From IMG/VR virus record IMGVR_UViG_3300031823_000001, positions 97,741 through 161,740 of that record: DNA of 64,000 bases; one strand, written 5' to 3'. This document shows positions 32,855-52,551 of the stretch, one piece after another. A program made the translations under genes and the position numbers. Numbering within the stretch: the stretch's first letter is position 1; each line of letters starts with the position of its first letter. A model generated the notes under the pieces. The model made no database searches and was not told the DNA's origin. It was given only the letters and a program-made list of their open reading frames with translations. Source of the stretch: a virus.

Positions 32855-33296
32855 GTCCCTGCTGGTGCAGGAGGCCCCCTACCCCGACACCCTCCAGGAC
32901 CTGGTGGACAGCCTGGTCTACCGGCCGGGCTGGAAGTTCCGCCTGGCGCGCCTCGACCGGGGCCAGGGGAGCATCGGGCTGACCCTGGTCATCACGACGC
33001 TGGGCTATGACGCCTATCACGTGGACCGGGGCGAGACGTACCAGGTGAACCACTACATGCTGGTGCCCCCGGCCGCCTACAACCAGCCGTCGTGGCGGAT
33101 GTGGCTGTTCGAGCAGATCCTCCTCGTGGAAAAGCACGAGGCGATGGAGTTCTTCGCCTTCCTGTCCGAGAAGAAGATCACGCGCCCGTACGCGCCGAAC
33201 CACGGTTTCGGATGGGACCCGTACCTGGTGACTGAAGTCTCCTGGGACAGGGACCGCCGTACTAACTTCCGGAACGAGCTTTCCCCGGAGGCCTGA
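32832..33296 (+). CDS. Hypothetical phage protein
   Basis: High-GC3 ORF; TGATG coupling at 33294-33298. Confidence 0.65.
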   Translation: MGTDTPTKSLLVQEAPYPDTLQDLVDSLVYRPGWKFRLARLDRGQGSIGLTLVITTLGYDAYHVDRGETYQVNHYMLVPPAAYNQPSWRMWLFEQILLVEKHEAMEFFAFLSEKKITRPYAPNHGFGWDPYLVTEVSWDRDRRTNFRNELSPEA

Positions 33297-34102
33297 TGGC
33301 TGTCGGCCGGTGGGACGCCCCGGACACCACGGCCGCCGGGCCGCTCGACGTCTATGCTCTAAGGAGGTTGCCCAGGCGCCGCGCTAACGGTCCTGGGCTG
33401 GAAGACCTGTGTGGAGGTCCCCCCATGGCTTCAGTGTACGTCTTTTCTGGTACCCCGAGCTGCACGGTGTGCGGCGTTCCGGTGCGAAGCGACAACAAGG
33501 TCGGTATCTGCGACCGGACTCCGGCATGTCGCCGTGTCCGTGCCCAGCTCGCTTATACCCCTGCTAAATGGGAGTTCTCCTGTTCTGTCTGCGACAGGGG
33601 TATCAGGGCCGACAATCACTCAGGCGTCTGCCAGAGGTCACCTGAGTGCCGGAGAGAACATGACCGTCGCCGCCATATCGCGAACCGGGCGAAGCGGCTT
33701 GCGGTCCAAAAGCAGTACCGGGACCGTCCCGGACGCGCATGCCGTTACTGGGCGTCCGGGTGCACTGAGCATGCCGTAATCGGAGGTCACGCCTGCCGGG
33801 AGCATGCCCGTCAAGAGGGCCGAGCCTTGCATGCAGCACACCGGACCAACCTCGTTAACCGGCTTGCGGAAGCACAGCACTGGATTTGCACGTGGGAGAT
33901 CTGCTGGCAGCCGATTCTTCCGGACCACCAGGTCGAGATCGATCACATCATCCCGATCTCCTCGGGCATCGTCATCCAGGATGAATGGAATCTCCAGGTC
34001 CTTCACCAGGGGTGCAACCGAGCGAAGGGGAGCAAGATCACTGGCCAGAGCGTGAGATTGGCATGGAAACACGGAATAGAGCTGATCTCAGTTGGCGATT
34101 AG
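33296..34102 (+). CDS. HNH homing endonuclease with Cys-rich repeats, in frame with a terminase N-terminal remnant (own RBS and ATG at 33425)
   Basis: C...C...IDHIIP...WNLQVLHQGCNRAKG; repeated CxxC...N..G.C.R.P.C; lower GC. Confidence 0.85.
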   Translation: MAVGRWDAPDTTAAGPLDVYALRRLPRRRANGPGLEDLCGGPPMASVYVFSGTPSCTVCGVPVRSDNKVGICDRTPACRRVRAQLAYTPAKWEFSCSVCDRGIRADNHSGVCQRSPECRREHDRRRHIANRAKRLAVQKQYRDRPGRACRYWASGCTEHAVIGGHACREHARQEGRALHAAHRTNLVNRLAEAQHWICTWEICWQPILPDHQVEIDHIIPISSGIVIQDEWNLQVLHQGCNRAKGSKITGQSVRLAWKHGIELISVGD

Positions 34103-36596: not shown

Positions 36597-36679
36597 TCCT
36601 CGTCTGGTAGCAAGATCACGAGCAGCCTCCCGTGGAAGACATGGGAGGCTGTCGCTTTCTGTCCGTCCTCCCTTACCCG

Positions 36680-36702
36680 AATACGGGCTTTCTTGATAAG
36701 GT
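36680..36702 (+). promoter_or_regulatory. Conserved promoter motif driving polyprotein 1, probably leaderless
   Basis: AATACGGGCTTTCTTGATAAGGT, seven nt before ATG 36710. Confidence 0.7.
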
Positions 36703-36709
36703 GGACGGC

Positions 36710-39700
36710 ATGGCGTCGATTCAGGGCGACGGTCACGGCACTGACTGGGACCGTGTCTTCCGGGAGAAGGACCCCCGCCTCACCGAGGTGCACCGGGGCC
36801 TGCGCATCTGGCCGGACTACGACGCCTACCAGCACGCCCACGACAAGTCCGTCCCGGTCGCCGAGCGCGCCCACGCGCTGCTCGGCCACATCGGCGACCT
36901 CATGAGGCGCGAGCATCGTGGCATCGGCATGAGCTGGAGCGACAGCCCGACCCTAGCCCGGCAGGCCGCCGGGGAGGGCGGCTGGAGCCATCACGGGCTG
37001 ACCGGGCGCCCGGACCCTGAGAGCCCGGACTACGATGACCGGCCCTTCCACATGCCGGTGGTGCTGAACGCGGCGTGGCCTGAGAAGGAGCACATCGAGA
37101 CGCGCCCGCACGTCCTTGACCGCCACGGCGTGTTCCCCTATGACGACGCGGAGATGTCGCAGGGCGAGGTCCCCGTCCGGAATGGTGCCCCGGTGCGGGT
37201 CACCGGGATCTCCTGGGCGAAGGACGGTACCGAGCGCGACACCTGGAACCACCACGTCTTCGACCACCCGGTGCACTACAACGGCACGGAATTCGAGCCC
37301 CACGGTCCTGGCCACGAGCACACCGCCGCGCTACTGGAGCACTTCGAGGCAGCGGAGGGTGACGGCCGCCGCTACTACCACGCCAGCGACGAGGACTTCG
37401 AGCCCGGCGACACCGTGTCCGGCGGCCACCGGCTCGACGACCTGTACCTGGCCGACACCATCCCGGGCGCGCACAAGTACTACACCTCGGGCAACGTCTA
37501 CGAGATCGAGCCCCATGACGATCCGCAGCCGTCGATGAAGGGCGAGTACACGGTGCCGTCGGGCACCGTAAAGCGCAGGGTGCCGTCAGAGGAGGTCAGC
37601 AAGGCCGTCCGGGACGCCTACAACGCACCCGACCAGAAGGCCGCGCGGGACCGCACCAACCGCCGCCAGCGCGAGCACTCCTGGCGCGTCAAGAACGACC
37701 GCTGGTACCACGGCTACGGCGGCCAGGACAAGCCCGGCTGGGACGAGTACCAGTCCCACTGGTTCCCTGAGGGCATCGAGAACGCGACGGACGAGCAGTC
37801 GGAGGCGTCCCGGCACGGCAGTCCCCTGCCGCCGGAGATCCACCGCTGGATTCACGGGACGGAGGCCGCCGTGCAGCCGATCGACCTCTACCACCACACC
37901 ACTCCGGAGAATGCCGCCGCGATCATGCGCGAGCGGAAGATGAAGTCGGCCGAGCGAGGGCCGGACGGCCGTCTCTCAGCGTTCTTCACCACCGACCCGT
38001 CTCCCTTGGAGAGCCAGGCGGGCAGGCGGGGGAGCGCCACGGTTCACGTCCGGGTGCCCGAGCACCTGACCTGGGTGGAAGACGAGTTCCCGTCGGGCGA
38101 GCAATGGCACGGGATTCCGCTGGCAGAGCTGCGGCCTGAGCACTTCGTGGACTCCGAGATCAGCCGGGAGGCATCCGTGCAGCATCATGGCATCAGCGGG
38201 GAGAGTGCCCCGGAGAGCGCGGACATCTTCGCCGAGCCGACCGGGATCAGCCCGGTGGGCTCCCACCACGCGGACCTGATGCGCCACCCGGAGAGGTCCG
38301 TCCGGGTGAACGGGCGCGGGGAGAGCGAATGGGTGCACCCGCACCTGACCGCCCCGGACCACGGCCCGTACTACGTCGCCCGCGACCCCGGGGATCCGGA
38401 CGGCAACGAGGGCACCCTGCATGTCCTGGACCGCAACGGCCACGCGACTCACCGGCCCTACAAGGGCGGTAGCTGGCAGCACGCCAATGCCTACCGGGAC
38501 TGGCACCGGCTGACCTACCGCCAGGACCCGGAGGGGGAGGGGACTGAGCGCGACGTCCCCTCGATCATGGAGGACCACCAGCGGCACCTGTCCGCGAACC
38601 CGCCGCAGTTCCCGCATTCCCGCACCGACCCCCGCGACACCGAGATCCTGAGGCGGCCGGACGCCCGGGTGGCGCGGCCGGAAGGGTACAGCCCGAGTGA
38701 CGAGTACCACGGCTCCTACGAGGTGGTGCGGCACCCGGACACCGGCCGGTTCCACGTCGTGGACAACCAGGGCCGTCACGCCGGCGCCGGCTATGACGGC
38801 GCGCCCACGCAGATCGGCGCGGAGCGGTCCCGCGACTATATCGAGAAGCGCCAGATGGGCAAGGAGCGCGCCCGGGGCATCGCCGACAAGCTCATGGGCG
38901 GCGGCATGGAGGCTCTCGACCCGGGCGGCACGGCGGAGTCCCGCGAGTCCGAGGCGAATATGGCTGCGGCCTCGGACATGATGGGCCGTTACGAGGGCGG
39001 CCGGGGCAAGGTCAAGTTCGACTCCGACGAGGAGGGCGGGCGTCCCTACTACGAGCGGGAGCACCACCTGCCGAACGGGCAGGCCTCCGGCTGGTACGCG
39101 AAGCACTACGGCGGCCCTTCCGCCGACGTCTACCACCGGGCGACTGGCGACCTCTCCTACGCCCTGCTGCGGTTCCCGGTGCACCCGGAGGACGAGGGCA
39201 GCATGACCCCGCGCCTGCACCCGGCCTTCCGCGACGAGCACCTGGCGGAGTCGCTGAAGAACTGGCACGACAACGAGGAGAGCCAGGAGCGGCAGTCCCT
39301 GGAGGCGGCCGACCCGAGGATCAGCCGCTGGAAGCAGCAGCGCCTCGGCTCGCAGCACGAGGTGGTCGCCCACTTCGAGGAGACGGCCGCCGCGCAGGAC
39401 CCGGACGAACGCCCCTTCGGCTACTACACCCTGCGCCACCGCACCGAGGACCTCGGCGAGCGCAAGCCCCGCCATTTCATCGAGGCCCACACCCCCGAAG
39501 GCAGCGTCGTCGGGCGGATGAACTGGTTCGGGACGACCGGCTGGGTGCACCACATCGACGTGGCAGGCGAGGAGGACGACGTCGGCAACGGGTTGTCCTC
39601 GATCGGCGACGGCCGCGACCACCAGGGACGCGGCCTGGCTACCGCCATGTGGGACTGGTCGCAGGAGATGCGGCCCAAGGCGAAGCACTCCAAGGACCAG

Positions 39701-42700
39701 TCCAATCAGGGCAAGGCGTGGGCGCGCGGGCTGAAGGACCGCGAGCGCCGCGACCCGCCGGAGGAGCCGCCGTCCTTTCAGGTGACCGCAGCAGCGGAGT
39801 ACGGCCCGAAGCCCGAGTTCCGGGCTGCGCCGGAGCACCTGTCTGATGACGAGAAGATGGAGCACTGGGAGGGGGAGCGCCGGAAGAAGCACGCCTGGGA
39901 GTCGCACATCCGCCGGGGCCTCGCCCTGGGCCACCTCGACTACGGCTGCGCCCGCGAGCTGGGCTACTGGGGCAACGGGGACGAGCACCCGGACGAGACG
40001 TGGAACCACGAGGGCGAGATCGTCTCCCGGCGCGGGTGGCAGCCGCTCCCGCAGCGCCTGTACCACGTCACTACCAACCTCCCGGCGGTCCGCGAGCACG
40101 GGCTGAAGTCCCGCCGCGAGCTGGGGCAGCACACCACCGGGGGACTGGGCCTCGGCGGCGGCCCGGACGACACCGTCTCCCTGACCTCGCATCACGGCAC
40201 CGCCCGGAACATCCTGCGGTCGATGCATGAGTACCACGACGTCCTCAACGGCAGGAAGACCCCGCAGGAGATGATCGACGAGGCCCGCACCGGGTCCTCG
40301 GCGGAGCGTCCCTTCCTGCACGACTGGATCGGCCTGTCCGGGCACCCGGTCCCGGAGGAAGACGAGCTGCCCCGGCCGATGCGGGCGGTAATGGAGGGCC
40401 ATGAGGTCTACACCAACCCGACGCTGCGCACCCGCGAGGACATGCACGAGCAGGAGGGTCCCGGCTGGGAGCCGGAGGACGAGGGGCGTGACTTCGCCGG
40501 GCACCACGTCCACAACGGGCCGTGGCGCCGCACCCCGACGCCCGAGCGCCGCCGCCAGCAGCTATCGGAGTTCTACAAGAACTTCTCCTGGGCCAGGTCG
40601 TGGGCGAAGGGGCCGGACAACCCGCTGTTCTCGGCCAACGACGCCGAGGGCTTCGCGCACCTCGACCCCCGGCACTTCGCGATCGTCCACGCGACCCCGC
40701 ATCCCGGCGCCCAGGGGTTCCCGCAGTCGTCGCTGCAAGAGTGGCGCACCGCGAGCGGTGACGCAGTGCACGTGCACCGGGCCGAGCAGCTTGAAGGCGG
40801 CCACCTGAAGGAGGCATCAGTGAGCCTTGCGTCGCGCTTCCAGCCAGGGCTTCGCAACCCGCACACAGGCGGGGACGAGTGGTTTCACGGCACCCAGTCC
40901 GACCCCGGGGACTTCGTGCACGGGTTCTCCCACGACGACACCCATGACCACGAAGACGAGGAGCTGCGCGAGCACCTGTCGCACTGGAACACCAAGCTCG
41001 GCTCTCACTTCGCGGCCGACCACGGGGTGGCGGAGCACTTCGCCCGTCAGGGGGCTTCGACGGACGACGACGAGGACGACTGGGGCGGTGACGACGGCCG
41101 CAGCCGCTACCAGGAGAAGGACCCGCAGTCGGTGATCCACGCCCGGCTGCACCTGCGCAACCCGAAGGTCTACGACTCTGAGTTCGACATGGACCACGAG
41201 GCGTACGAGCACGAGTACGGGCAGCGGAAGAACTACATCTCGAAGCACTTCGAGGACAGCTACGAGGACGAGGACCCGTCTCACGAGGATTACGACCCGG
41301 ATACCCCGGGCGAAGGCGAGGAGTGGCCGCTGGCCGCCCGGTACCGGCACGACGACAAGCAGCCGATCCCCCGTGAGCAGATGCAGCGCCGGACCCTGTT
41401 CTCCAACCCGGACATGCCGGAGATGCCGGAGCGTACCCGCTGGCTGGCTTCCCACCCGGACAAGGCGGGGATTGCCCGGCGCTTCAAGGAGCGGCTCCAG
41501 GCCCAGGGCCACGACGGCATCCTGTACGGCAATGAGTTCGAGACCAGCCACGCCACCGGGGACGGGGGTCACCACGACCTGTCGGCCATCATCTTCCACC
41601 CGCACCAGGCGGAGATCACCCAGCACCACCAGACCGGGGCTCCCTGCCTGTCGCGCGAGGAGGGCGAGAGCCAGCGGGGCCGGATGCCGCAGCCCGGCCA
41701 GGAGGAGCTGCCCGGTGTCGAGGAGCACGCCGACCACTTCCCGAACGGGTTCCTGCGCGGCGCCGCCCTCCTCGCTCACTTCGGGGAGCCGAGGACGGCT
41801 ATGCCGCTGCACATGCAGCAGAAGCTCTTCCACATGCAGCCCGACCCGACATTGCACGAGCCTGAGTCCGGCCGCCATAACCCGTCCGACCCGGAGGCGC
41901 ACCTGCGCTGGCGGCACGAGCACGACGAGGGCTACGAGCCGGACACCTGCGAGCAGTGCGGCGAGGACCAGCGGCGCTGGCGCGAGCACGCCGAGAAGCA
42001 CGACGACTGGCAGCGCGGGCAGGACTGGTACACCGACTGGAGCGAAGAGCACCCGGGCGATGCCATCCACCGGGGTATCGGCGTCGCCCTTCCTCCGGAG
42101 GTGCACGCCGTGGTGCACGACGAGTCGCGGCCCCTTGCCGAGCGCGCCCGCGCCCTGGCGCATCACGTGGTGAGCAGGGGCGGCCTGGGAAACTTCTGGT
42201 CGTCCGACCCGGACGTGTCGAAGACCTACGCCGAGTCGTCCGCGAAGCGGTACAGCAGCCAGGGCGAGAAGACCCCGGTCATGCTGCATGCGCACACCCC
42301 GGGCACAGAGCACATCGAGACCGACCCGGAGACGCTCCAGCACTGGGGCGTTTACTCCTACCACCTGGCCGGGAACCGGGAGGTGCCGCTTCAGCACCAG
42401 GCCCCGGTGCACCTGAAGGGCATCTCCTGGGCGCCTCCGGGGCACGAGGCGCAGGGACCTCACCCCTCCGATCCCAAGTGGCACAACCCGGGACCGCACC
42501 GCTTCGACCAGGACCGGGCCTGGACGCACCACGAGTTCGGTGGCGACGGGATAAGCGCGAATGCCTCCCTGGCGGCGGTTGTAGCCCACTTCGATGAGGG
42601 ACCGCAGGTTCCGTCGTTCACCTGGAAGTACCAGACCTACGGGCCGGAAGGCGGCTACACCGACAAGGAGCAGGAAGTCGCCGGGCCGTTCTACCACGGC

Positions 42701-44164
42701 AGTCGCTCGAAGGGACTGCGCCCCGGCAGCAGCGTGAAGAAGGGCATGTCGGCCAACCCGTGGGGCGACGAGGGCAACGAGGCGGCAGAGCCGGACCCCT
42801 GGGATGAGTTCAGCCGGCCCTCTCGCTACATGCGGGCTCCCGAGGAGCACGAGGCATTCGGCCATCTCAGAGATGACCACAGGATCAACCCGGAGCTTCT
42901 GATGCGGCTGCCCGATGAGACTCTCCGTAGAACTCACTACGAGATACACAGCGGCGAGCTGTACGGGGCGCCAGGCAGCGGTCATTACCATGATGAGCGG
43001 CCCGGTGAAGACAACTGGGACGGCGCCCTCCGGGGGCTTCATCCTGAGGCATCCCTCCCGGCCGTCGTCGCCCACTTCGAGGATGGCGACCAGTACGTCG
43101 CCCCGCCGCAGCCTGGCGACGAGACGTGGAGCCACCTCCAGGAGGCGCACGGAGCGCGCCCTTCGGCGGGCAGCGACAAGGCGCCGGGCGCCGACTTCAC
43201 GAGTGCCCTGCACCGCAGGTTCCACGACGGCAAGAAGGCGTTCCCGGGGTCGGTCCCCCACCATCACGGGGCTCAGGCCGAGGCCCCGGCTGCCGGGCAG
43301 TCTGCCAGGGACTCCATCTCCCGGATGTTCACCCCGATCCCGCCTGAGGAGCTGGAGGCGCAGCGGCGTGCAAGCGAGCCGAAGCCCGAGCGGCTCGACG
43401 ACCGGGAGTACTCGATCCGTGACGTGAGCAGGCACTACGACTGGGAGGGGTTCGACCCCCACGAGATCGAGCACCTGGTGCACCGTCCCGAGCACGCGAC
43501 TTTCACCAGGGAGGACGTGCCGGTCCACACCCTCCGGCACGCGGACGAGCACGGGAACCTGGTGGCGCCGCCTTCCTACCACGACATCGCCAGCCAGGAC
43601 GACGACGAGCGGGAGCGCCTGGAGGGACTGGAGCGCGGCTACGAAAACGGCGAGCCGGTGCCGCCGATCGTGACGGTCCGCGACGGCGAGCACCACATCA
43701 TCGCCGACGGCTCGCACCGGGCGGCCGTCCACGTCAGGCGCGGCAGCACCCACATCCCGGCGTTCGTCACCCAGCGGACCATCTACCCGGGAGCGCACGA
43801 GGCGTCGCGCCGCGAGGACGAGATCGTCCTGGCGCCCGTCTGCGACACCGTCCCGGCGATCGACGCCTCCCCGCTGGCGCAGGTGATCGCCGCCGCCGGT
43901 CTCCTGGGGTCGTGGGCGCCGCAGACGCGGGAGGACGCGCTGGACGGGATCAGCGCGTTCACGGCTGAGGTGCTCCCCGCTCTCCGCCAGGGGCTGCTAC
44001 GGCTGGCGGCGGTCATCGAGGAGATGCCGGTGCACCCGGACGTCGCCGAGCTGCTCTACGGCATAGCGCGGGCGTCCCGGGTCGCGGCGCAGGACGGCGC
44101 GGAGATGCTGCGGAGGCTGCCCCCGGAAGCACCATGGCAGGAGAGTGGTCCCCCAAATCGCTGA
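36710..44164 (+). CDS. Polyprotein 1 (about 2484 aa): multiple ADP-ribosyltransferase-fold modules, GNAT, ParB-like and TraA-like domains
   Basis: Motifs HRG..W(S/T)..EVP x2, YYHAS..VYEIEP, LYHHT, LYHVT..GL.SR, WFHGT..LRNP..GHDGI, QGRGLAT, DGSHR. Confidence 0.85.
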   Translation: MASIQGDGHGTDWDRVFREKDPRLTEVHRGLRIWPDYDAYQHAHDKSVPVAERAHALLGHIGDLMRREHRGIGMSWSDSPTLARQAAGEGGWSHHGLTGRPDPESPDYDDRPFHMPVVLNAAWPEKEHIETRPHVLDRHGVFPYDDAEMSQGEVPVRNGAPVRVTGISWAKDGTERDTWNHHVFDHPVHYNGTEFEPHGPGHEHTAALLEHFEAAEGDGRRYYHASDEDFEPGDTVSGGHRLDDLYLADTIPGAHKYYTSGNVYEIEPHDDPQPSMKGEYTVPSGTVKRRVPSEEVSKAVRDAYNAPDQKAARDRTNRRQREHSWRVKNDRWYHGYGGQDKPGWDEYQSHWFPEGIENATDEQSEASRHGSPLPPEIHRWIHGTEAAVQPIDLYHHTTPENAAAIMRERKMKSAERGPDGRLSAFFTTDPSPLESQAGRRGSATVHVRVPEHLTWVEDEFPSGEQWHGIPLAELRPEHFVDSEISREASVQHHGISGESAPESADIFAEPTGISPVGSHHADLMRHPERSVRVNGRGESEWVHPHLTAPDHGPYYVARDPGDPDGNEGTLHVLDRNGHATHRPYKGGSWQHANAYRDWHRLTYRQDPEGEGTERDVPSIMEDHQRHLSANPPQFPHSRTDPRDTEILRRPDARVARPEGYSPSDEYHGSYEVVRHPDTGRFHVVDNQGRHAGAGYDGAPTQIGAERSRDYIEKRQMGKERARGIADKLMGGGMEALDPGGTAESRESEANMAAASDMMGRYEGGRGKVKFDSDEEGGRPYYEREHHLPNGQASGWYAKHYGGPSADVYHRATGDLSYALLRFPVHPEDEGSMTPRLHPAFRDEHLAESLKNWHDNEESQERQSLEAADPRISRWKQQRLGSQHEVVAHFEETAAAQDPDERPFGYYTLRHRTEDLGERKPRHFIEAHTPEGSVVGRMNWFGTTGWVHHIDVAGEEDDVGNGLSSIGDGRDHQGRGLATAMWDWSQEMRPKAKHSKDQSNQGKAWARGLKDRERRDPPEEPPSFQVTAAAEYGPKPEFRAAPEHLSDDEKMEHWEGERRKKHAWESHIRRGLALGHLDYGCARELGYWGNGDEHPDETWNHEGEIVSRRGWQPLPQRLYHVTTNLPAVREHGLKSRRELGQHTTGGLGLGGGPDDTVSLTSHHGTARNILRSMHEYHDVLNGRKTPQEMIDEARTGSSAERPFLHDWIGLSGHPVPEEDELPRPMRAVMEGHEVYTNPTLRTREDMHEQEGPGWEPEDEGRDFAGHHVHNGPWRRTPTPERRRQQLSEFYKNFSWARSWAKGPDNPLFSANDAEGFAHLDPRHFAIVHATPHPGAQGFPQSSLQEWRTASGDAVHVHRAEQLEGGHLKEASVSLASRFQPGLRNPHTGGDEWFHGTQSDPGDFVHGFSHDDTHDHEDEELREHLSHWNTKLGSHFAADHGVAEHFARQGASTDDDEDDWGGDDGRSRYQEKDPQSVIHARLHLRNPKVYDSEFDMDHEAYEHEYGQRKNYISKHFEDSYEDEDPSHEDYDPDTPGEGEEWPLAARYRHDDKQPIPREQMQRRTLFSNPDMPEMPERTRWLASHPDKAGIARRFKERLQAQGHDGILYGNEFETSHATGDGGHHDLSAIIFHPHQAEITQHHQTGAPCLSREEGESQRGRMPQPGQEELPGVEEHADHFPNGFLRGAALLAHFGEPRTAMPLHMQQKLFHMQPDPTLHEPESGRHNPSDPEAHLRWRHEHDEGYEPDTCEQCGEDQRRWREHAEKHDDWQRGQDWYTDWSEEHPGDAIHRGIGVALPPEVHAVVHDESRPLAERARALAHHVVSRGGLGNFWSSDPDVSKTYAESSAKRYSSQGEKTPVMLHAHTPGTEHIETDPETLQHWGVYSYHLAGNREVPLQHQAPVHLKGISWAPPGHEAQGPHPSDPKWHNPGPHRFDQDRAWTHHEFGGDGISANASLAAVVAHFDEGPQVPSFTWKYQTYGPEGGYTDKEQEVAGPFYHGSRSKGLRPGSSVKKGMSANPWGDEGNEAAEPDPWDEFSRPSRYMRAPEEHEAFGHLRDDHRINPELLMRLPDETLRRTHYEIHSGELYGAPGSGHYHDERPGEDNWDGALRGLHPEASLPAVVAHFEDGDQYVAPPQPGDETWSHLQEAHGARPSAGSDKAPGADFTSALHRRFHDGKKAFPGSVPHHHGAQAEAPAAGQSARDSISRMFTPIPPEELEAQRRASEPKPERLDDREYSIRDVSRHYDWEGFDPHEIEHLVHRPEHATFTREDVPVHTLRHADEHGNLVAPPSYHDIASQDDDERERLEGLERGYENGEPVPPIVTVRDGEHHIIADGSHRAAVHVRRGSTHIPAFVTQRTIYPGAHEASRREDEIVLAPVCDTVPAIDASPLAQVIAAAGLLGSWAPQTREDALDGISAFTAEVLPALRQGLLRLAAVIEEMPVHPDVAELLYGIARASRVAAQDGAEMLRRLPPEAPWQESGPPNR

Positions 44165-47100
44165 CGCCGCCCCGCCCGATCAGGGCGGAGGCGGCCGACG
44201 ACCGCATCTGGTACCACGGAACGCCAGATGAGCGGACCTGGGAGCACGGTGCGCCCTACGGCATCCACGTGGGTACCGAGGAGGCAGCCAGGCAGGCTCT
44301 GCACGCCCGGATCGGCAAGCCTGCCGAGGGCGAGTGGGACGGCACCCGGGAGTACGGCAAGACGCTCCTGAACAGGGACTACAGCATCTATAGCCTGGAC
44401 GGCACCAAGACAACCCAGCGCAATCCGCCGTCGTACCCGACTAAGGGGCCTGGCTACAGTGACGGGACCACCGGCCCTATGGATGCCCGGCCGAGCATCT
44501 TCCCGGTCCGGATCAAGGGGCCGATGACTAATCACCCCGACGCCCCGGTGACCGACGATTACGCGAACGGCCGGATGCGCGGGCAGATCACCCGGGGTAA
44601 TGCGCGGCGCGGTTACTACTACACGAACCACGGTGAGGACGAGGGATCTATCTCAGCGGCCGTCCCGTCGGCCGCCCACCTGGAACGGATTCATCCGCCG
44701 AAGACTGCGGCTCACGGCGGTGAGCGGTCCTACGTTCTCTACCACGGCGCTCACCATGACGACGTGCGTAGCATCCTGGCCTCCGGCCTGCGGGGGGACC
44801 CTGACCAGCCGACGGTGACGACGAGCCGCGAGGGCGCCGAGCTGTACGGCCGTAAGCGCGACTGGACGGCGCCGAAGGTGCTGGAGATTCACGTGCCCCG
44901 CTCCCAGGTGCACCGCTACCTGGGCGAACCGCAGGAGGGCCTGCCGGTGGAAGGCACGGTGCACGCGCTGCGGGAGACGCTGCCGCCCGCGTTCATCCGC
45001 GCGGTGCACGAGGCGAGCCTGAGACGGGGAGCTGCCTGGAGTCCCCAAGTTGGGATCTTCGGCCCGACCACCGGCCTGGACCCGCTGCTGTTCGATGAGG
45101 GCGGCATGCTGCGCGGCCAGGTCCGCCACGAGATCATGACGCGGCTCGACCAGTGCCTCCGGGTGAACTCCGGGCTGGCCGGGAGCGACTGGCAGGAGTG
45201 GCTGCACGTCTGGCTGACGGGCGGGTCGGCCTCGGAGTGGGCCGGGTCACGGCCGAATGAGAAGGCGCAGGACCTGGACGTCATCGTGGCGATCGACCTG
45301 CCCGAGGCCCAGGGATACGGCGCCTTCGATGGGATGAACGGCGGGGAGGCCGCCTCCGCGCTGAACGCCGCCCTCTGGAAGCACTTCAACACCGACGGGT
45401 GGCAGCCCGGGTTCGGCGGACGCTGGAATCTCACCGCGTTCTGCAACCAGCGGGCGAAGGACGGCATCGGGGCGATCAAGCCGTACGCCGCCTACGACGT
45501 CACGGGCATGCGGTGGGCGGTCTCCCCTCCCCACCTGCCGGAGCACACCGTCGCCGACTTCGACCCGGCGGTGATCGCCCACGCCCGCGCGGTGGCGGCC
45601 GAGGCCCGCGCCATCCTGCGGATGCCCGAGCCGCTGCGCACCCGGGAGGCCCGCGACCTGTGGGAGCACGTCCACCAGCACCGCTGCACGGCGTTCTCGA
45701 AGGAGGGCACCGGCTGGGAAGATCCCGGCAACGTGGACGAGAAGATGCTGGCATACGCCCCGCACGACTTGCTGGGGAAGATTAAGGAGCTGGCGCTGAA
45801 CAGTCAGCAGAAGACGGCTGCCTGGTCGCCCGAGTGGCCGGAGGACGAGCGGTCATGGCGCGGGGAGCGTCGTCTGCTGCCCCTTACGGACCTGATCGCC
45901 AACGATAAAAACATGCGCGAGGTGCTGTCCTCGGGACGCCGTTCTGAGACCGTCGGTGCCATCCACGTCTGGCCGCGCGATGACATGCCCGGCTTTGAGA
46001 TCGGTGATGGCCACCACCGGGTCGCCGATGCCATCCGCAGGGGTGAGACCCATATCGACTCAGAGGTCGAGCCGTGGCCCGACGAAGAGCAGTACGATCC
46101 CCCGTTTTACGACTTCAGCCAGCACATGCGCCGGGAGTCAGCCCTGGCGAAGACGGCCGCCGCGCAGAACCCGCCGTGCCGGTACTGCGGGGAGCCCCTC
46201 GACGAGGAGGACGTCCGCGACGGCCACAGCGCGCACGAGGAGTGCTCCGACATGCGCTGGTGCGAGCCGCACCAGGAGTACCACGATGACCCCCAGGAGG
46301 CCGAGGGCCACAACGGCACGTACACCGACTGGGGCTGCTACCTGCCGTTCGAGGGCGGCATCCACCGGGGCCTTACCGTCCGGCTGCCGGAAGAGGCTCA
46401 CCGCCTGGTGCACGACGAGACGCGTCCGGCCGCCGAGCGAGCCCGCGTGCTGAAGAGCCACCTCGACGATGGCGGCCACTACGGCGTCCACTGGACCGAT
46501 CACCTGCCTGTCGCCCAGGCGTGGGGCTCGGACAACGGGGCCGTCTTCGGCGTCCCCGACCCGGACGACTCCTCGCGCACCCACGTGGTGCTGCACGCCG
46601 CGAGCCCGGGTGTGGAGCACATCGAGGATGACCCGGAGAAGCTGTCCGGCCGCAACCTGTGGGGCTTCGGCCATGAGAACTCCGAGCGCGAGGTCCCGCT
46701 GAAGGAGGGCGCGCCCGTCCACGTCACCGGCATCTCGTGGAAGCGCGGCGGCGAGAGCGAGTGGAACCGGCACGACTTCGGGGAGACCGCGCCCAAGACC
46801 GCCTCGTGGGACCACAGCGGATCGGACCACAGCGGCGTCTACCTGCGGTTCGGCGACTGGCCGCACGACGAGCGGTCCTTCAGCCCGGCCGGCGGCTACC
46901 ACGAGGAAGGCGTCAGCGCCTACGACCTGGACCGGCACGGCGACCCGTCGATCGACCACGGCCTCAACCGGGGCCATCAGCACGACGACGAGTGCGACGT
47001 GGACGAGAACGGCACCTGCCAGTTCCAGGACCCGTGGGGGGAGCCGGACAACGACCCGCAGGAGGAGATGCGAGGCCGCGTCGCCCGTGCCGAGCGCTCC

Positions 47101-50100
47101 CGCTACTACGGCAGCGACAAGCCCTCCGAGGTAGGTCACCTCGTCCGGGGAGAGATGACCGGCGTCGGCTACGACGGCGAGCCGTTGCTGAAGAACGTGA
47201 GGCGGGTCGGCGACTGGATCGACCACCGGCACCTGTTCCTCGACCAGGCGAAGCCGCACCGCCTTGCCCGCGACCCCTCTGACGAGGACTACGAGGAGCC
47301 AGAGGAGAAGCCGCCGTACGGCTACCGCAACCGCACTGCTGCCCTGGAGGCCGGAACCCAGCTGTATCACGGAAGCCTGCACCAGTACGCGCCGGGCACA
47401 GTACTCACTCCCGAAGGGAAGGACGCCGAGGGCTCCCGCTGGTCGGGTGACTACGTCTACGCCGCCACGAGCCCGGAGGCGGCCCGGTACTTCGGCTCCA
47501 TGCACGACACCACCCCCATGAGCGACGCGGACGTGCACGTGCACCGGGTCGAGCCCGTTGGTGACGTAGAGCCGGACGAGTTCCCCGAGGGCGCCGAGGA
47601 CGAGAGGTTCGCTCGCGGGAACTACCGGGCGAAGGCGCTGCGCGTACTCGACAGCCGCCGCGTGCCGGGACACTGGGCGAAGACGGGCGCCTACGAGGGC
47701 GAGCGGATGCTCCGCAACACCCACGAGCTTGGCTGGAGCAACGAAGAGTGGGCTGCCGCGCGCCGCGAGCCGTGGCACGCGGCGGCTAAGCTCGCCCAGC
47801 GGCAAGTGCGCCTGGACCACCCGAAGACGACCATGGATTTCCCGCGCGGCGAGGAGGGCGACCGGATGGTCGGCCATATCCTCCGCCATACCGGGTACCA
47901 GGGGGACGTCAGCGGGGCGTTCGTCTCCCGGCATCCTGATCCCGCGAGGAGGACCTCCAATCCCGCGTGGCTGGACGGGTACCCCGGGGTAACCCTGCAC
48001 CCGGAACGATGGGACTACGGCACTGTCGCGCATGAGGCCGCCCACCACGCAGTGATGGAGGCCCACGGTGTCGGCCCGAACCAGTACGAGTCCGACGAGG
48101 CCAGTCACGGCCCCGAGTGGGCCGGGCACTACGCGCAGGGGCTGAACAGGATCTCGAAGAGCGCCGGGGACGACTTCCTGGCCCACCACCAGTTCTACCG
48201 GGACCTGATCGGCGAGGGCCTCCAGTGGAAGCGCCCGTCGGACATGGACGCGGCCGACGAGCGGTGGCGGAACTCGGGGGAGTCTTACCCGCGCGGTCCC
48301 CGACCGCAGCAGAGTCACTACGGCACGGGCATCGAGCGCGAGGCGGCAGCGGCAGAAGGACCTGCCGGGATCCGCATGGTCGAGCCTGAGGAGTACCGGA
48401 AGTACGTCTTCCCTGACTACCCGGCGAAGACCCTCCCGGCTCTCGCCAGGCACCTGAGGAAGAACAGCCCGGGGTACTACGACAAGCTCCGCGCTGACGT
48501 GCAGGCTAACGGGGTCCGCACGCCGCTCCTGGTGCGCTTCCCCGGCGTTCCCGGGCACCCGGTGAAGAAGCCGCAGGTGATGGATGGCCATCACCGGGGA
48601 GCTGTCGCCAGCGAGCTGGGCCTCCCGGTGCCAGTTGGCGACTATGACAACGAAGAGCACTATCGGTCGGCTATGCAGGCGGGGCAGGCGTGGTTCCGCG
48701 AGAACCACGACCTGAAGGCCGGCATCGTGCGCGAGGCGGCAGCCGACCCGGCTTACCTGCACGGAGGGCCGAACCGGGTGGAGCCCGGCGGTCTCATCCA
48801 CCAGGACGCCATGCCGGAGAGCTACGGTCGGCTAAGCCATAACTTCTTCACTACCAGCCGGGACGTGGCCGAGGAAGCCGCTGACATGCGCAACGGCCTC
48901 GGCCACGGCTGGGTGCATACCGTTGAGCCGACCGGGCCGTTCGAGGTTGACCCGGGCGAGCCGGATTCCTGGAAGTCGGAGGCTCCCCTGCGGGTGCTGT
49001 CGGTAGAGCCGGGCCGGCTGAATGGCAAGGTCCCGCACCCGCCGATCGTGCGCGAGGCGGCGGCTGAGCACGGCCCCGTCTACACCTACGTGCCGGGCTC
49101 CTCCCCGGGGTCGCACGCGATCGTCGCGCACCCGGCCGGGGCCGAGCAGACGAAGGAGAACCGCATCGGCAGGCTGAGCTGGACCGAGGAACCCGAGGGA
49201 CCGCGCGTCGTAAACGTCCACGTGGACGAGGGGTGCCGGCGGCACGGCATCGCGACCGAGATGCTGCGGCGCGCCGAGGAGATCACCCCCGGGATCAGGC
49301 ACTACAACCCTAGTCCCGACGCCGTGAAGTGGATCGAGGGGATGGGCAAGGAGGCGGCAGCCGGAGACTACCGCCAGCCGCACCAGGGGCCGGACGCTGA
49401 GGACGGGGAGGCACTGCACGAGCTGGGGACGAAGGGTTTTTTCCCGCCTGACGTGCACGAGCGTCCGCAGGATTACGGGGCCGACACCCAGACGGCGGGC
49501 AAGATCCGTAAGGCACGCGGCAACCCGGACGAGCGGATCACCATGTACCGGGCGATGCCGAGCCCGCATCACAAGATCAACACAGGCGACTGGGTGACCT
49601 TGTCCGAGGACTATGCCCGTGAGCACGCCGAAGAGTCTCACCCGGACGATAACTACGCCGTCCTCGGTAAGGTCACCCGCGCCAGGCACCTGCGCAATGA
49701 TGGCAACGACCTGAACGAGTGGACCTACCACGGGCCGACCCAGCACTTCCCGAAACTTGTTGACCGGGGCGGCAAGAACGGCGGCTGGAAGAACTCAGCC
49801 GAGCTGAGCAAGGCCCAGTGGAAGGACGTGCCCCCGGAGGATGAGATGCCGTCCCGCGAGGCGGCCAGCTCTGACGGCGTCCCCCAGCGGCCGAAGCGGA
49901 CCCCCGGCAGCGCCATGGTGTACCTGGACGTCCCGCACGGCACCGTCGAGCCGTACGAGGGGATGGAGACCGGCCACCACGTCGCCCTGGCGTACCTGCC
50001 CCGCAAGATCGGCGACGAGGACTTCGCCCGGGTGGTGGACCGCGCCCGGGAGGCGGCGGCCAGGCACGCGCCGATGAAGGCCACCATCTCGGGCGGCGGG

Positions 50101-52551
50101 GTCTTCCCGCCCGGCACCCCGCCCGACCGGCGGAGGGCGGCGGTCGTCCCGGTGCACGCCCCCGGCATCCACGAGCTGCACCGCGAGTTCTCCGAGTTCG
50201 ACCGGGCGCACTACGAGGCGTACACCCCGCACGTCACCCGGGCGCAGCTCGGCGGCCACCAGGCCGACCCGCCGGCGCACCCGGAGGTGAGCTTCCCCGT
50301 CACCCACGTGCACGTGCGGCGGGGCGACGAGGTGCACTCCTTCCCGCTGACCGGGACGAGCCGCACAGAAGCCGCCCTTCTCGACCCGAAGTGGCGCGAG
50401 GTCCAGGTCATGAACGGCTGGACCTGGGACCCTACCCCGCGTCCCGTCGGGAAGGGATACGACACCCGGCCGGTCTCGGTGCGCGCTGACGACGCGGTGC
50501 GCGATTACCTGACGCACCGCAGCCAGCACGACAGCGAGACGGACGAGGAGTTCGCCGAGCGCAAGGCAGACATCGGGCGCTACGGCCCCTGGCACAAGCC
50601 GAAGGACAGGGACGTCCGGGTCCTGGAAAAGTACCGGGACCGGGCACTGAAGGGCGGCCCGATCCGGCGGGAGGGCGGCAGGAACGGGAGCATCCCGCAG
50701 GGAACTGAGTTCAGGCACGAGGTACTCGAACCGCCGGACGACTTTCACCAGATCACTGCCGAGCACCCGGAGCACGGCAGGATCGGCCGCATCACCTGGG
50801 AAGGGGCGTCAAGCGGCATCTTCCCGTCTGAGGTGCACGTGGCAGAGGTGCATCCCGACTTCCGCCGCCGGGGGATCGCCACCGAGTTGTTCCGCCGCGC
50901 CTCGGAGATCACCCCTGGCTTGCATCATGCGCCGGAGGAGGCGCAGGGTGACGACGCAAGGGCCTGGATCGCCCGTGAGGCGGCTGCCCGGACGGTTTGC
51001 CCGTACTGCGGCACCTACGAGGACGCCCACCCGCAGTTCGAGGGCCTCTACCACGCGACAAGCCCCGCGCACCGGAACAGCATCAGGGACTCGGGGCTGC
51101 GCACCGAGTTCGACCAGGGCGAGGACATGACCGAGCCCGGGATCTACATGAGCCCGCACTCTAACGATGACGCCCACCAGGACGTCTGGCACGTTGATAT
51201 CAGAGGACTGCGCCTCCACCCGGACGACCCGGGGAACATGGAAGAGTTCAAGGACGTCGGCGGGTCCTACTTCTCGAAGGAGGACATCCCCCCGGAGAGG
51301 CTGCACCTGCACCGGCCGGGCACGGGGAACAAGTGGATCGGCTATCCCCCGAAGACAGCGGCGGCCGGCCCGCAGTTCTTCCATGGGACCGACTCGAAGC
51401 TGAGCGAAGGCGACCTGATCGTTCCCGGTCGCCCGAAGGTGAACGCAGGCAGCGACCCCAGGCACGTCTACTTCACCGAGAAGTACGAGCACGCCGAGGG
51501 CGCGGCGAGGGGAGCCACTGACCGCCGTGCCACCAGCTACGACCGCGAGAACGGCAGGTGGGTGCATGACGCCCCGGGGGCGCACTACGTGTACGAGGTG
51601 GAGCCGACCGGGGAGTGGGGACAGGACGAGCAGCTCCCGTGGACGCCCTACAGCCACCAGTCCGCTCACCCGCTCCGGGTTGTGCGTGACGTCACCAGGC
51701 GTGACGGGGACATGCACCGCGAGGCGGTCAGCGGCTACGACGGGCTGACCGGGCGCTCCGCGATGATCTACCTCGATCTCCCGCCGGGCACCGTGCGGCT
51801 GGTGCCCGGCGGGGTCGATGATCACCACGTCACCCTGGTGTACCTGGGCAAGAACGTCAGCGACGAGGCGTTCGGGGAGGCCTGCCGCCGCACCAGGGCA
51901 GCCGCCGCGAAGCTCGCGCCGATGGACGGGGTGCTGCGCGGCATCGACATCTTCCCGCCGTCTAAGTCCAGCGACGGCAAGGTGGTCGCGTTCGTGCCCG
52001 CCTACATCGGCAGCGTCGGGCTGCTGCGCCGCGAGCTGGATGACCTGTCGGCCTCCGAGCACACCGACTGGCGCCCGCACGTCACCCTCGCGTACCTCGA
52101 AGAGGGCGACTCGCTGCCCGCACCGCACCCGGCGGTGCCGCTGCGCTTTGACCGCATCCACGTGAAGCGCGGGGACGACGTACGGAGCTTCCCGCTGGGC
52201 GGGATGCAGCGCCAGGCAGCGGCTGAGCTGCCTGCTTACTATCACGGCACCAGGTACGAGCTAACCCCGGGGCAGGTGCTGACTGGCGGCGCGAAGCCCG
52301 CGAACAACCCGGGTGTCGGCAGGTACGAGCACGTCTACATGACGCGGTCGCCGATGGGGGCTCATGCGGCGGGGAGCCTCGCCTACGATGAGCTGGGATA
52401 CCAGCGCGGGCAGCCTAACGTCTACGCCGTGGAGCCCCTCGACCCGGTAGAGCGCGACCCGTTTACGAACGGAGCTGTGCGCAGTAAGCGCGCCCGGGTG
52501 ATACGTAAGGTCAACCCGTTCACTGAGCCATACGATGGTGACGATGACTGA
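44134..52551 (+). CDS. Polyprotein 2 (about 2805 aa): about 10 ART-fold modules (four Arr-like), nucleotidyltransferase, two ParB-like, zincin, two GNAT, two 2H phosphoesterases
   Basis: (F/Y)HG..VEP Arr pattern, GGS..DLD, DGHHR x2, HEAAH..HGPEW, RRxGIAT x2, HVT/HVT pairs. Confidence 0.85.
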   Translation: MAGEWSPKSLTPPRPIRAEAADDRIWYHGTPDERTWEHGAPYGIHVGTEEAARQALHARIGKPAEGEWDGTREYGKTLLNRDYSIYSLDGTKTTQRNPPSYPTKGPGYSDGTTGPMDARPSIFPVRIKGPMTNHPDAPVTDDYANGRMRGQITRGNARRGYYYTNHGEDEGSISAAVPSAAHLERIHPPKTAAHGGERSYVLYHGAHHDDVRSILASGLRGDPDQPTVTTSREGAELYGRKRDWTAPKVLEIHVPRSQVHRYLGEPQEGLPVEGTVHALRETLPPAFIRAVHEASLRRGAAWSPQVGIFGPTTGLDPLLFDEGGMLRGQVRHEIMTRLDQCLRVNSGLAGSDWQEWLHVWLTGGSASEWAGSRPNEKAQDLDVIVAIDLPEAQGYGAFDGMNGGEAASALNAALWKHFNTDGWQPGFGGRWNLTAFCNQRAKDGIGAIKPYAAYDVTGMRWAVSPPHLPEHTVADFDPAVIAHARAVAAEARAILRMPEPLRTREARDLWEHVHQHRCTAFSKEGTGWEDPGNVDEKMLAYAPHDLLGKIKELALNSQQKTAAWSPEWPEDERSWRGERRLLPLTDLIANDKNMREVLSSGRRSETVGAIHVWPRDDMPGFEIGDGHHRVADAIRRGETHIDSEVEPWPDEEQYDPPFYDFSQHMRRESALAKTAAAQNPPCRYCGEPLDEEDVRDGHSAHEECSDMRWCEPHQEYHDDPQEAEGHNGTYTDWGCYLPFEGGIHRGLTVRLPEEAHRLVHDETRPAAERARVLKSHLDDGGHYGVHWTDHLPVAQAWGSDNGAVFGVPDPDDSSRTHVVLHAASPGVEHIEDDPEKLSGRNLWGFGHENSEREVPLKEGAPVHVTGISWKRGGESEWNRHDFGETAPKTASWDHSGSDHSGVYLRFGDWPHDERSFSPAGGYHEEGVSAYDLDRHGDPSIDHGLNRGHQHDDECDVDENGTCQFQDPWGEPDNDPQEEMRGRVARAERSRYYGSDKPSEVGHLVRGEMTGVGYDGEPLLKNVRRVGDWIDHRHLFLDQAKPHRLARDPSDEDYEEPEEKPPYGYRNRTAALEAGTQLYHGSLHQYAPGTVLTPEGKDAEGSRWSGDYVYAATSPEAARYFGSMHDTTPMSDADVHVHRVEPVGDVEPDEFPEGAEDERFARGNYRAKALRVLDSRRVPGHWAKTGAYEGERMLRNTHELGWSNEEWAAARREPWHAAAKLAQRQVRLDHPKTTMDFPRGEEGDRMVGHILRHTGYQGDVSGAFVSRHPDPARRTSNPAWLDGYPGVTLHPERWDYGTVAHEAAHHAVMEAHGVGPNQYESDEASHGPEWAGHYAQGLNRISKSAGDDFLAHHQFYRDLIGEGLQWKRPSDMDAADERWRNSGESYPRGPRPQQSHYGTGIEREAAAAEGPAGIRMVEPEEYRKYVFPDYPAKTLPALARHLRKNSPGYYDKLRADVQANGVRTPLLVRFPGVPGHPVKKPQVMDGHHRGAVASELGLPVPVGDYDNEEHYRSAMQAGQAWFRENHDLKAGIVREAAADPAYLHGGPNRVEPGGLIHQDAMPESYGRLSHNFFTTSRDVAEEAADMRNGLGHGWVHTVEPTGPFEVDPGEPDSWKSEAPLRVLSVEPGRLNGKVPHPPIVREAAAEHGPVYTYVPGSSPGSHAIVAHPAGAEQTKENRIGRLSWTEEPEGPRVVNVHVDEGCRRHGIATEMLRRAEEITPGIRHYNPSPDAVKWIEGMGKEAAAGDYRQPHQGPDAEDGEALHELGTKGFFPPDVHERPQDYGADTQTAGKIRKARGNPDERITMYRAMPSPHHKINTGDWVTLSEDYAREHAEESHPDDNYAVLGKVTRARHLRNDGNDLNEWTYHGPTQHFPKLVDRGGKNGGWKNSAELSKAQWKDVPPEDEMPSREAASSDGVPQRPKRTPGSAMVYLDVPHGTVEPYEGMETGHHVALAYLPRKIGDEDFARVVDRAREAAARHAPMKATISGGGVFPPGTPPDRRRAAVVPVHAPGIHELHREFSEFDRAHYEAYTPHVTRAQLGGHQADPPAHPEVSFPVTHVHVRRGDEVHSFPLTGTSRTEAALLDPKWREVQVMNGWTWDPTPRPVGKGYDTRPVSVRADDAVRDYLTHRSQHDSETDEEFAERKADIGRYGPWHKPKDRDVRVLEKYRDRALKGGPIRREGGRNGSIPQGTEFRHEVLEPPDDFHQITAEHPEHGRIGRITWEGASSGIFPSEVHVAEVHPDFRRRGIATELFRRASEITPGLHHAPEEAQGDDARAWIAREAAARTVCPYCGTYEDAHPQFEGLYHATSPAHRNSIRDSGLRTEFDQGEDMTEPGIYMSPHSNDDAHQDVWHVDIRGLRLHPDDPGNMEEFKDVGGSYFSKEDIPPERLHLHRPGTGNKWIGYPPKTAAAGPQFFHGTDSKLSEGDLIVPGRPKVNAGSDPRHVYFTEKYEHAEGAARGATDRRATSYDRENGRWVHDAPGAHYVYEVEPTGEWGQDEQLPWTPYSHQSAHPLRVVRDVTRRDGDMHREAVSGYDGLTGRSAMIYLDLPPGTVRLVPGGVDDHHVTLVYLGKNVSDEAFGEACRRTRAAAAKLAPMDGVLRGIDIFPPSKSSDGKVVAFVPAYIGSVGLLRRELDDLSASEHTDWRPHVTLAYLEEGDSLPAPHPAVPLRFDRIHVKRGDDVRSFPLGGMQRQAAAELPAYYHGTRYELTPGQVLTGGAKPANNPGVGRYEHVYMTRSPMGAHAAGSLAYDELGYQRGQPNVYAVEPLDPVERDPFTNGAVRSKRARVIRKVNPFTEPYDGDDD
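44152..44195 (+). promoter_or_regulatory. Candidate -1 ribosomal frameshift signal
   Basis: C CCA AAT in the polyprotein-1 frame, 7-nt spacer, 12-bp GC stem at 44166-44195. Confidence 0.5.

Follow-up and report, generated by a model that had tools for sequence, protein, structure and literature searches.

Does translation of a giant phage gene end at its stop codon, or does a fraction of the ribosomes slip back by one base and continue into a second giant gene? This question is raised by a junction between two very long open reading frames (ORFs) in a stretch of 64,000 nucleotides (nt) of virus DNA, bases 97741–161740 of the IMG/VR record IMGVR_UViG_3300031823_000001, which we refer to as the window; the complete record of 161,740 bp carries direct terminal repeats and stems from a large phage with a GC content of ~70%. 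ORF1 (36632–44164, + strand) encodes 2,510 amino acids (aa) from a GTG at 36632 and sets the 0 frame of the signal, and ORF2 (44134–52551, + strand) encodes 2,805 aa in the −1 frame relative to ORF1, as can be read directly from the sequence. A model that had seen the letters and a list of ORFs (the original prediction) had stated this frame relation and proposed that a −1 frameshift fuses both ORFs into one product. Our follow-up supports this candidate by ten of ten related loci, by 34 of 37 protein tails, and by two homologues that are fused in frame: Judged from these sequence comparisons, the junction is likely to carry a selected −1 frameshift that yields an ORF1–ORF2 fusion, probably beside free ORF2.

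Anatomy of the junction

The 3′ end of ORF1 reads ...GGT CCC CCA AAT CGC TGA, with the stop codon at 44162–44164, and overlaps ORF2 by 31 nt when counted from the ATG at 44134. Within this overlap, the slippery heptamer C_CCA_AAT (44152–44158, + strand) stands in the register of ORF1 and is separated from the stop by a single 0-frame codon (CGC followed by TGA, 44159–44164, + strand); position, register, and distance to the stop are evident from the sequence and agree with what had been claimed. The heptamer is followed by a spacer of 7 nt (CGCTGAC, 44159–44165) and a hairpin (44166–44195, + strand) of 12 GC-rich pairs, which is composed of the 5′ arm GCCGCCCCGCCC (44166–44177), the loop GATCA (44178–44182), and the 3′ arm GGGCGG-A-GGCGGC (44183–44195) with one bulged A. 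The coordinates of this previously described stem, including its bulge, 5-nt loop, and spacer, were confirmed, and folding supports it: The 71-nt stretch 44145–44215 folds at −35.9 kcal/mol (z = −3.4), a stability reached by none of 200 shuffled sequences, and the hairpin is more stable than 99.3–99.9% of equal-length segments located up to 4 kb to either side and within both ORFs.

In-frame heptamers of the type XXXAAAN or XXXTTTN occur only twice among the 2,510 codons of ORF1. Across the two ORFs, third-position A amounts to 3.1% and third-position C to 48.6%; CCA accounts for 6 of 428 proline codons (1.4%), AAA for 2 of 144 lysine codons (1.4%), and AAT for 16 of 120 asparagine codons (13%), which makes CCA and AAT unusual codons, as had been noted before. 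Downstream of the shift site, ORF2 remains open for 2,797 codons, with a GC content at third codon positions of 0.89, with Pfam domains, and with homologues. The anticipated length of the fusion, ~5,280 aa, corresponds to 2,483 + 2,797 residues and holds provided that ORF1 begins at the alternative start ATG 36710, which gives a protein of 2,484 aa and is also the start of the database copy P0100.

A genome-wide scan for in-frame XXXYYYZ heptamers that lie within 120 nt of a stop and are followed by a coding −1 extension returned, among A/T-type heptamers, the ORF1 site, a weak CCCTTTC with an extension of 58 aa, and G_GGA_AAA at genome position 77625. The only two strong sites of this type in the genome are the ORF1/ORF2 junction and the last-named one, which belongs to a tail assembly chaperone gene outside the window (genome 77161–77700; phrog_2792, E 6.5e-10). 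Here (G000:C1:77161-78068; L065:1161-2068), a −1 extension of 148 aa lies behind G_GGA_AAA, a spacer of 6 nt, and a GC hairpin of 9 perfect pairs (GCCCAGGGG / CCCCTGGGC), and by its sequence this is the canonical G/GT frameshift of the phage. Since the chaperone site consists of a heptamer, a short spacer, and a hairpin, the ORF1/ORF2 junction has the same architecture. That ORF1 and ORF2 might themselves be the tail-chaperone G/GT pair was considered and rejected: Neither is a chaperone, and the true chaperone lies elsewhere with its own slippery site.

Conservation of the slippery site

The comparison covered ten independently assembled loci (the window, L018, L019, L020, L021, L022, L023, L056, L057, and L058), whose ORF1 C-terminal domains share 21–49% identity. 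The heptamer is found in the register of ORF1 in all ten, as CCCAAAT in six and as CCCAAAA in four (L021 and the more divergent L056, L057, and L058), and in all ten a TGA or TAG stop follows exactly one codon past it. The intervening codon varies and reads CGC, CGG, CGA, or GCG in L018–L023 and GCG, GCC, or GAC in L056, L057, and L058. In the AAA variants, the tail of ORF1 changes from PNR to PKA or PKD and the serine codon of the ORF2 frame changes from TCG to AGC, with the X_XXY_YYZ pattern and the stop position retained. When the ten loci are aligned on the heptamer, the core signal has no invariants besides CCCAAA and the T with which the stop codon begins; the bases directly behind the stop are mostly conserved, and conservation is essentially absent from the 24 nt in front of the heptamer.

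A hairpin near the heptamer, mostly at a spacing of 5–8 nt, is likewise present in ten of ten loci. Its sequence differs among them and is unrelated in L056, L057, and L058; the arms read, for instance, CCCGGCAGGC / GCCTGCCGGG in L023, GATGCCGTC / GACGGCATC in L019, and CGCCGCTG / CAGCGGC in L058. Downstream stability exceeds the local background at p < 0.06 in six of the seven loci that were tested for it (Fisher combined p ~4e-6). Between the window and L022, one base pair changes in a compensatory manner from C–G to U–A, which replaces proline by serine and alanine by threonine on the arms; because this change alters amino acids on both arms, the structure seems to have been kept at the expense of the protein. 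RNAalifold found no consensus structure for the heptamer-anchored alignment, the hairpins not being homologous position by position, and the conservation of the hairpin is consequently assessed by per-locus stability and one pairwise compensatory change instead of formal covariation. With heptamer, stop position, and hairpin thus kept in all loci, conservation in related genomes, which the original prediction had named as a check, speaks for the candidate.

At the protein level, the signal is carried by the tail behind the last module of ORF1: The module itself (43871–44116, + strand) is a three-helix domain, and the tail (44117–44161) is predicted to be unstructured. AlphaFold modeling of the segment 43790–44161 gave a mean pLDDT of 87.7 with helices at residues 28–41, 47–77, and 83–109, which suggests a confident three-helix bundle with a disordered, signal-bearing tail. 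This end-domain has no match in Pfam, PHROGs, or, according to Foldseek, the PDB, and tblastn against phages retrieved none either. A profile of the end-domain, searched in filter-only mode, matched 137 of 1.84 billion representative proteins; in giant proteins with the tail motif, the end-domain lies at the extreme C-terminus, directly before the junction, and its homologues end in ...W-x(n)-P-[N/K]-x-stop. Among 37 representative upstream proteins with the tail motif, 34 terminate in P-[N/K]-x-stop (PNR, PNH, PNQ, PNL, PKA, PKG, PKD), with the last residue free to be R, H, Q, L, A, G, or D. A fixed proline and asparagine or lysine, a free last residue, and a fixed stop position are what a nucleotide signal predicts, and on sequence grounds this pattern appears hard to explain by selection on the protein tail. 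The end-domain also exists as free-standing proteins of ~95–115 aa ending in ...E-x-x-W-[DN]... (P0165–P0169), and free-standing copies occur on the actinomycete plasmids AY027524.1 (Frankia), NZ_CP063197.1 (Thermobifida), and NZ_CP107965.1 (Kitasatospora).

Downstream of the junction, the first ORF2 domain has its closest homologue in P0003 (84% identity), followed by P0004, P0006, P0007, P0009, P0011, and P0018; in all of these, the domain forms the N-terminus of a called giant gene, and most begin with M..PKS[LVI]. In every case with fetched context, the downstream giant gene follows another giant ORF (~930 to >3,500 aa), with a called overlap of 31–37 nt where the gene caller picked the upstream start. 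Directly before the first ORF2 domain (WYHGTPDE...) stands the linker-like motif R-A-E-A-A-D (44182–44199, + strand), which resembles the recurring [KR][ET]AAA-type linkers that separate modules throughout ORF1 and ORF2. The N-terminus of ORF1 is devoid of such a linker and starts directly with a domain, and in the related genome G002 the first ORF2 domain is internal and preceded by HTAAAG. The linker at the head of ORF2 and the internal copy in G002 fit an ORF2 that is, at least part of the time, the continuation of ORF1. An unbiased DNA pattern for YHGTPDER matched four loci on viral contigs, among which there was no further junction of this type; in metagenome contigs it retrieved mostly SNF2-type helicases besides contigs already known.

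Two homologues join both parts in a single frame. In P0110, the helical domain (residues 1288–1361) is followed by ...GGEEPPPK-ASRPLSEVSAATGHLTLYHGAHHDD, the join reading ...EEPPPK-ASRPL...LYHGAHHDD, and the stretch behind it is 55% identical to the ORF2 head of L056. In P0244, the domain (residues 927–1011) is followed by ...AESGGPPK-VLSRAAAAWAPSKGIFGPTTG with the join ...ESGGPPK-VLSRAAAAW..., and the stretch behind it is 56% identical to residues 297–563 of the window ORF2. In both proteins, the PPK at the join is the expected product of a −1 shift on C_CCA_AAW. A search for further fused forms, confined to proteins of 4,394–5,000 aa, found none, which in this range is weak evidence.

These observations bear on the assumption that a single gene of ~5,280 codons has been broken within the C5A3 run, either through an indel from sequencing or assembly or through a mutation of recent date. 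A single additional C would indeed restore one continuous frame, indels readily arise in homopolymers, and the two fused homologues are in frame; however, an identical split with the same frames and the same stop position recurs in ten assemblies that stem independently from different samples, as well as in 34 of 37 representative proteins, which argues for selection and makes an accidental split extremely improbable. Sequencing error as such was rejected because loci that had been assembled independently share the split. Transcriptional slippage was judged unlikely as well: Runs of 3–4 A and 3–5 C, as present here, are too short for it.

Could the hairpin and the A-rich patch instead constitute an element of mRNA processing or stability, for instance a target of RNase III or RNase E or a stem that protects the 3′ end of an ORF1 transcript, with the arrangement of the frames being incidental? 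A stable hairpin does stand right after the ORF1 stop, and just before it lies the only A/U-rich patch of an mRNA with 70% GC. Yet neither a U tract nor a terminator call on the + strand nor an Rfam match was found at the junction, a cut at the heptamer would part ORF2 from its conserved start, and processing leaves the register of the heptamer, the fixed stop position, and the fused homologues unexplained; we therefore consider such an element quite improbable. An intrinsic terminator was rejected specifically for the absence of a U tract after the hairpin.

Probable start codon of ORF2 and proposed mechanism

Frameshifting is not the sole conceivable route to ORF2, which has a candidate start codon of its own. 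The −1-frame ATG (44134–44136, + strand) is formed from the ORF1 codons CCA and TGG (Pro-Trp) and is a probable independent or re-initiation start. Its ribosome binding site is weak, as had been claimed: The only Shine–Dalgarno (SD)-like element, GGAAG (44125–44129, + strand), lies 4 nt upstream and arises from the ORF1 codons CCG GAA GCA. Elsewhere in the phage, other genes are preceded by GGAGG or AAGGAG at 5–8 nt and are thus better equipped than ORF2. Across the ten loci, the start codon is ATG in seven and GTG in three, never CTG or TTG; its first base is the third base of the ORF1 codon that precedes the tryptophan TGG (A in seven loci, G in three). GAA, which makes up 8.4% of glutamate codons, is found in ten of ten loci two codons upstream, with one alanine or glycine codon in between, and yields GGAAG or GAAGG 3–4 nt before the start. 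In the encoded motif [PT]-E-[AG]-x-W (44122–44133 in the window, and in the nine other loci), GAG, which constitutes 92% of glutamate codons, would give a perfect GGAGG. From this codon choice, the weak GGAAG seems to have been selected as such, and the −1-frame ATG/GTG itself appears to be under selection at the nucleotide level. The distance from start to heptamer varies between 9 and 42 nt, while the spacing of heptamer, stop, and hairpin is rigid, so that start codon and shift signal are two separate elements.

A second SD-like element, AGGAG (44139–44143, + strand), lies 8 nt before the heptamer, where the original prediction had placed it. Its presence was confirmed, but its presumed role as a conserved stimulator of the dnaX type was not: Its distance to the heptamer ranges from 0 to 14 nt in nine loci, AGGAG, GGAG, or GAGG belongs to conserved W-E-E codons, and in L057 no such element stands upstream of the heptamer. 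A dnaX-type SD stimulator was rejected for this variable distance. A +1 shift out of the ORF2 frame was also set aside, as it would only reach the stop of ORF1.

Two further features were noted around the start. A possible upstream hairpin (44113–44145 in the window), whose loop would hold both GGAAG and the ATG, would pair as CUGCC/GGCAG in the window, as CUCCC/GGGAG in L018, as CCUCCC/GGGAGG in L021 and L056, and as GCUGCC/GGCAGC in L019, L020, and L023. This candidate structure might present the start codon or modulate frameshifting. In L058 (L058:12685-12780), the TTG start at 12775 chosen by the gene caller removes the conserved WYHGT...GDLIEPG of the first ADP-ribosyltransferase (ART) module, and the true N-terminus of the downstream protein must lie further upstream, at GTG 12676 or via the frameshift.

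The start codon is the mainstay of a plainer explanation, namely that the two genes are translationally coupled and ORF2 is made only from ATG 44134, without functional slippage, either by de novo initiation on the weak GGAAG or after termination at TGA 44162, from where ribosomes would back up by 31 nt. The hairpin would then only block forward movement of terminating ribosomes or stabilise the mRNA, and CCCAAA would be a by-product of two conserved peptides that overlap, P-K of ORF2 and P-N/K of ORF1. In line with this explanation, ATG/GTG and the GAA codon are conserved against codon bias, all gene callers call two genes with an overlap of 4–55 nt, and distant relatives use plain overlapping or separated starts for such gene pairs. 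However, coupling does not account for a stop fixed one codon past CCCAAA in all ten loci and 34 of 37 tails at ATG–heptamer distances of 9–42 nt, nor does it say why selection on the protein should hold a C-terminal P-[N/K]-x and leave the last residue free. It likewise leaves unexplained the rare CCA, AAT, and AAA codons, the PPK kept in homologues fused in frame, and a hairpin spacing of mostly 5–8 nt, as at the phage's own tail-chaperone frameshift site. Coupling alone is thus unlikely; ORF2 is probably also initiated independently, alongside frameshifting, which is not refuted by this.

How would the preferred −1 frameshift proceed? A ribosome arriving at C_CCA_AAU would hold tRNA-Pro in its P site and tRNA-Asn in its A site (tRNA-Lys at C_CCA_AAA), and the GC hairpin 7 nt downstream would sit at the mRNA entrance and resist unwinding. 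In a fraction of ribosomes, both tRNAs would slip one base back and re-pair to CCC_AAA; the next codon, UCG (Ser, TCG at 44158–44160), would then be decoded in the ORF2 frame, leading to the ~5,280-aa fusion ...WQESGPPN-SLTPPRPIRAEAAD... The expected trans-frame peptide is ...LPPEAPWQESGPPNSLTPPR, with the junction form ...LPPEAPWQESGPPN-SLTPPR. All other ribosomes would read one further codon and stop at UGA, releasing ORF1 alone. The conserved ATG/GTG with its weak SD element would probably supply free ORF2 by independent initiation or by re-initiation after termination. The outcome would be three products: ORF1, ORF2, and the fusion. While anatomy, conservation, codon rarity, and homologues fused in frame are shown by the sequences, that slippage occurs, and with what efficiency, is inferred. 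It is reasonable to suppose that the shift site may set the ratio of a short to a long precursor that would subsequently be processed. It may serve to determine which share of the ORF1 molecules is joined to the effectors of ORF2, for instance so that both are packaged or delivered together. As polyvalent proteins, they may be packaged in the virion and enter the host with the DNA.

Several points weigh against a frameshift at this junction. The phage is uncultured, and the frameshift is proposed from its sequence. Data from E. coli count on both sides: V_VVA_AAR ranks near the top in heptamer efficiency (Sharma et al. 2014, PMC4066793), which speaks for slippage, and C_CCA_AAU belongs there to a weaker class with a mixed purine/pyrimidine A-site codon (PMC4066793). 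A selected start codon means that ORF2 can be made without any frameshift, and dual selection at the protein level (P-K in one frame, P-[N/K] in the other) would in principle also force CCCAAA. Two loci fit less well: In L021 the hairpin is not exceptional compared with the local background, and in L057 the best hairpin begins ~13 nt downstream of the heptamer. P0110 and P0244 are known from protein only and may owe their fusion to an assembly indel. Finally, in distant relatives the downstream giant is made from an overlapping start or after a 15-nt gap, with no heptamer. Because these relatives join their giant genes by ATGCCTGA overlaps or a 15-nt gap, a free downstream protein is, as far as gene layouts tell, viable in the wider phage group. 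This second type of junction comprises an 8-nt overlap, ATGCCTGA, and a downstream N-terminus MPDL[MV]AHF without a slippery heptamer; it was seen in L025, L041, L045, and L051 and in the proteins P0012, P0013, P0015, and P0021. The AHF motif of these junctions resembles (V/L)(V/L)AHF linkers inside ORF1.

More tentatively, the helical end-domain, start codon, C_CCA_AAW, single codon, stop, and hairpin may form a module that is fixed throughout a clade of large, uncultured actinobacterial phages and gives rise to three products, namely the upstream protein, the downstream protein, and a fusion of 4,500–6,300 aa that would rank with the longest polypeptides of phages. The module would set how many copies of the second effector set stay attached to the first for packaging and injection, and could represent a DNA-phage counterpart of Gag/Gag-Pol; we regard this extension as possible but doubtful.

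Known recoding systems and genomic context

The layout had been likened to dnaX and to the IS3 family, and this comparison stands for the heptamer and the hairpin but not for the SD element of dnaX, as its distance at the junctions varies from 0 to 14 nt. E. coli dnaX (tau/gamma) likewise combines a heptamer with a simple hairpin 6–7 nt downstream and an upstream SD-like element (here AGGAG at 8 nt). In dnaX, however, the shift truncates the product, whereas it would extend ORF1 by ~2,800 residues, and the position of the SD-like element is unconserved here; an SD-like element at a fixed distance of ~10–14 nt upstream, as characteristic of the dnaX type, is not found at the junction loci.

Members of the IS3 family (IS911, IS3) share with the junction an X_XXA_AAN close to where the upstream frame ends, a stem-loop further downstream, and a 0-frame stop in the vicinity. 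In IS911, an AUU start for OrfB lies just upstream of the heptamer, and three products, OrfA, OrfB, and OrfAB, are made. As IS911 produces both OrfB and OrfAB, an own start and shifting need not exclude each other. One of the IS911 stimulators, moreover, has a second role (review PMC5009743). The IS3 family differs in that the product is a transposase and the signal consists of A_AAA_AAG and a three-way junction or pseudoknot, in contrast to giant polyvalent proteins and C_CCA_AAU/C_CCA_AAA here; compared with IS3, the phage site has its stop fixed one codon past the heptamer, a simple hairpin of variable sequence, and an SD-like element at no fixed distance.

Among tailed phages, only the tail-chaperone G/GT frameshift is known to be widely conserved. 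The copy in this phage shares the succession of heptamer, spacer, and hairpin with the junction, from which it differs in gene family, in location (before the tape measure gene vs. downstream of terL), and in the length of the extension (~150 aa vs. 2,797 aa). A conceptual likeness also exists to retroviral Gag/Gag-Pol and coronavirus pp1a/pp1ab, where one multi-domain precursor ends in a −1 shift that diverts a fixed fraction into a longer multi-enzyme precursor; those are RNA viruses that use eukaryotic ribosomes and often pseudoknots, and their processing is demonstrated, whereas for the phage giants it is the recurrence of [KR][ET]AAA linkers that raises a suspicion of proteolytic processing.

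Iyer et al. (2017; PMC5512222) have described polyvalent proteins from phages and from conjugative elements, in an article that never mentions frameshifting (0 occurrences). As in that description, ART, GNAT, 2H phosphoesterase, ParB-like, and peptidase domains are strung together here and encoded beside packaging genes; the proteins of this phage are, however, far larger and form a pair that would be linked by the frameshift. No report of this site or of frameshifts for polyvalent effector proteins was found in the published literature. The candidate mechanism is thus canonical, and gene context and product size are new. To our knowledge, few conserved frameshifts are known in tailed phages beyond the tail-chaperone G/GT. 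If the frameshift is real, gene callers split a product of 5,000–6,000 residues across a whole group of soil phages, and these phages set the stoichiometry of a multi-enzyme counter-defence set through recoding. The compact module of upstream start codon, heptamer, one codon, stop, and hairpin lends itself to direct reporter testing, which could provide slippage data on C_CCA_AAU and C_CCA_AAA for high-GC Actinobacteria, where frameshift rules are little studied.

The proteins themselves fit this context. Pfam matches in ORF2 comprise Arr-ms in three stretches, which are Arr-type ADP-ribosyltransferases, 2′,5′ RNA ligase/LigT in two, which are 2H phosphoesterases, and GNAT in two. ParB-like DGxHR motifs and Arr-like xYHG modules are visible in the translations of both ORFs, and homologues of the giant proteins, which for ORF1 measure 2,300–4,100 aa (P0100–P0108), carry NUDIX, ParB_N, and other domains. 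With several unrelated effector domains per polypeptide and a packaging-gene context with terL adjoining, both ORF1 and ORF2 are, by sequence, giant polyvalent proteins of an actinobacterial-type phage. A blastn search with the junction against PLSDB plasmids and GenBank phages gave no match. The terL gene (phrog_2) occupies 34092–36215 of the window, just upstream of ORF1, and the gene order of a 706–723-aa gene, a small gene, giant 1, and giant 2 recurs in L056 and L057. The ORF directly 5′ of terL (33296–34099) contains an HNH endonuclease domain (phrog_9645 and others). In G002 (G002:C1:117684-118190; L011), the match to the 2H phosphoesterase of ORF2 crosses one TAG near the end of a giant ORF of 2,076 aa.

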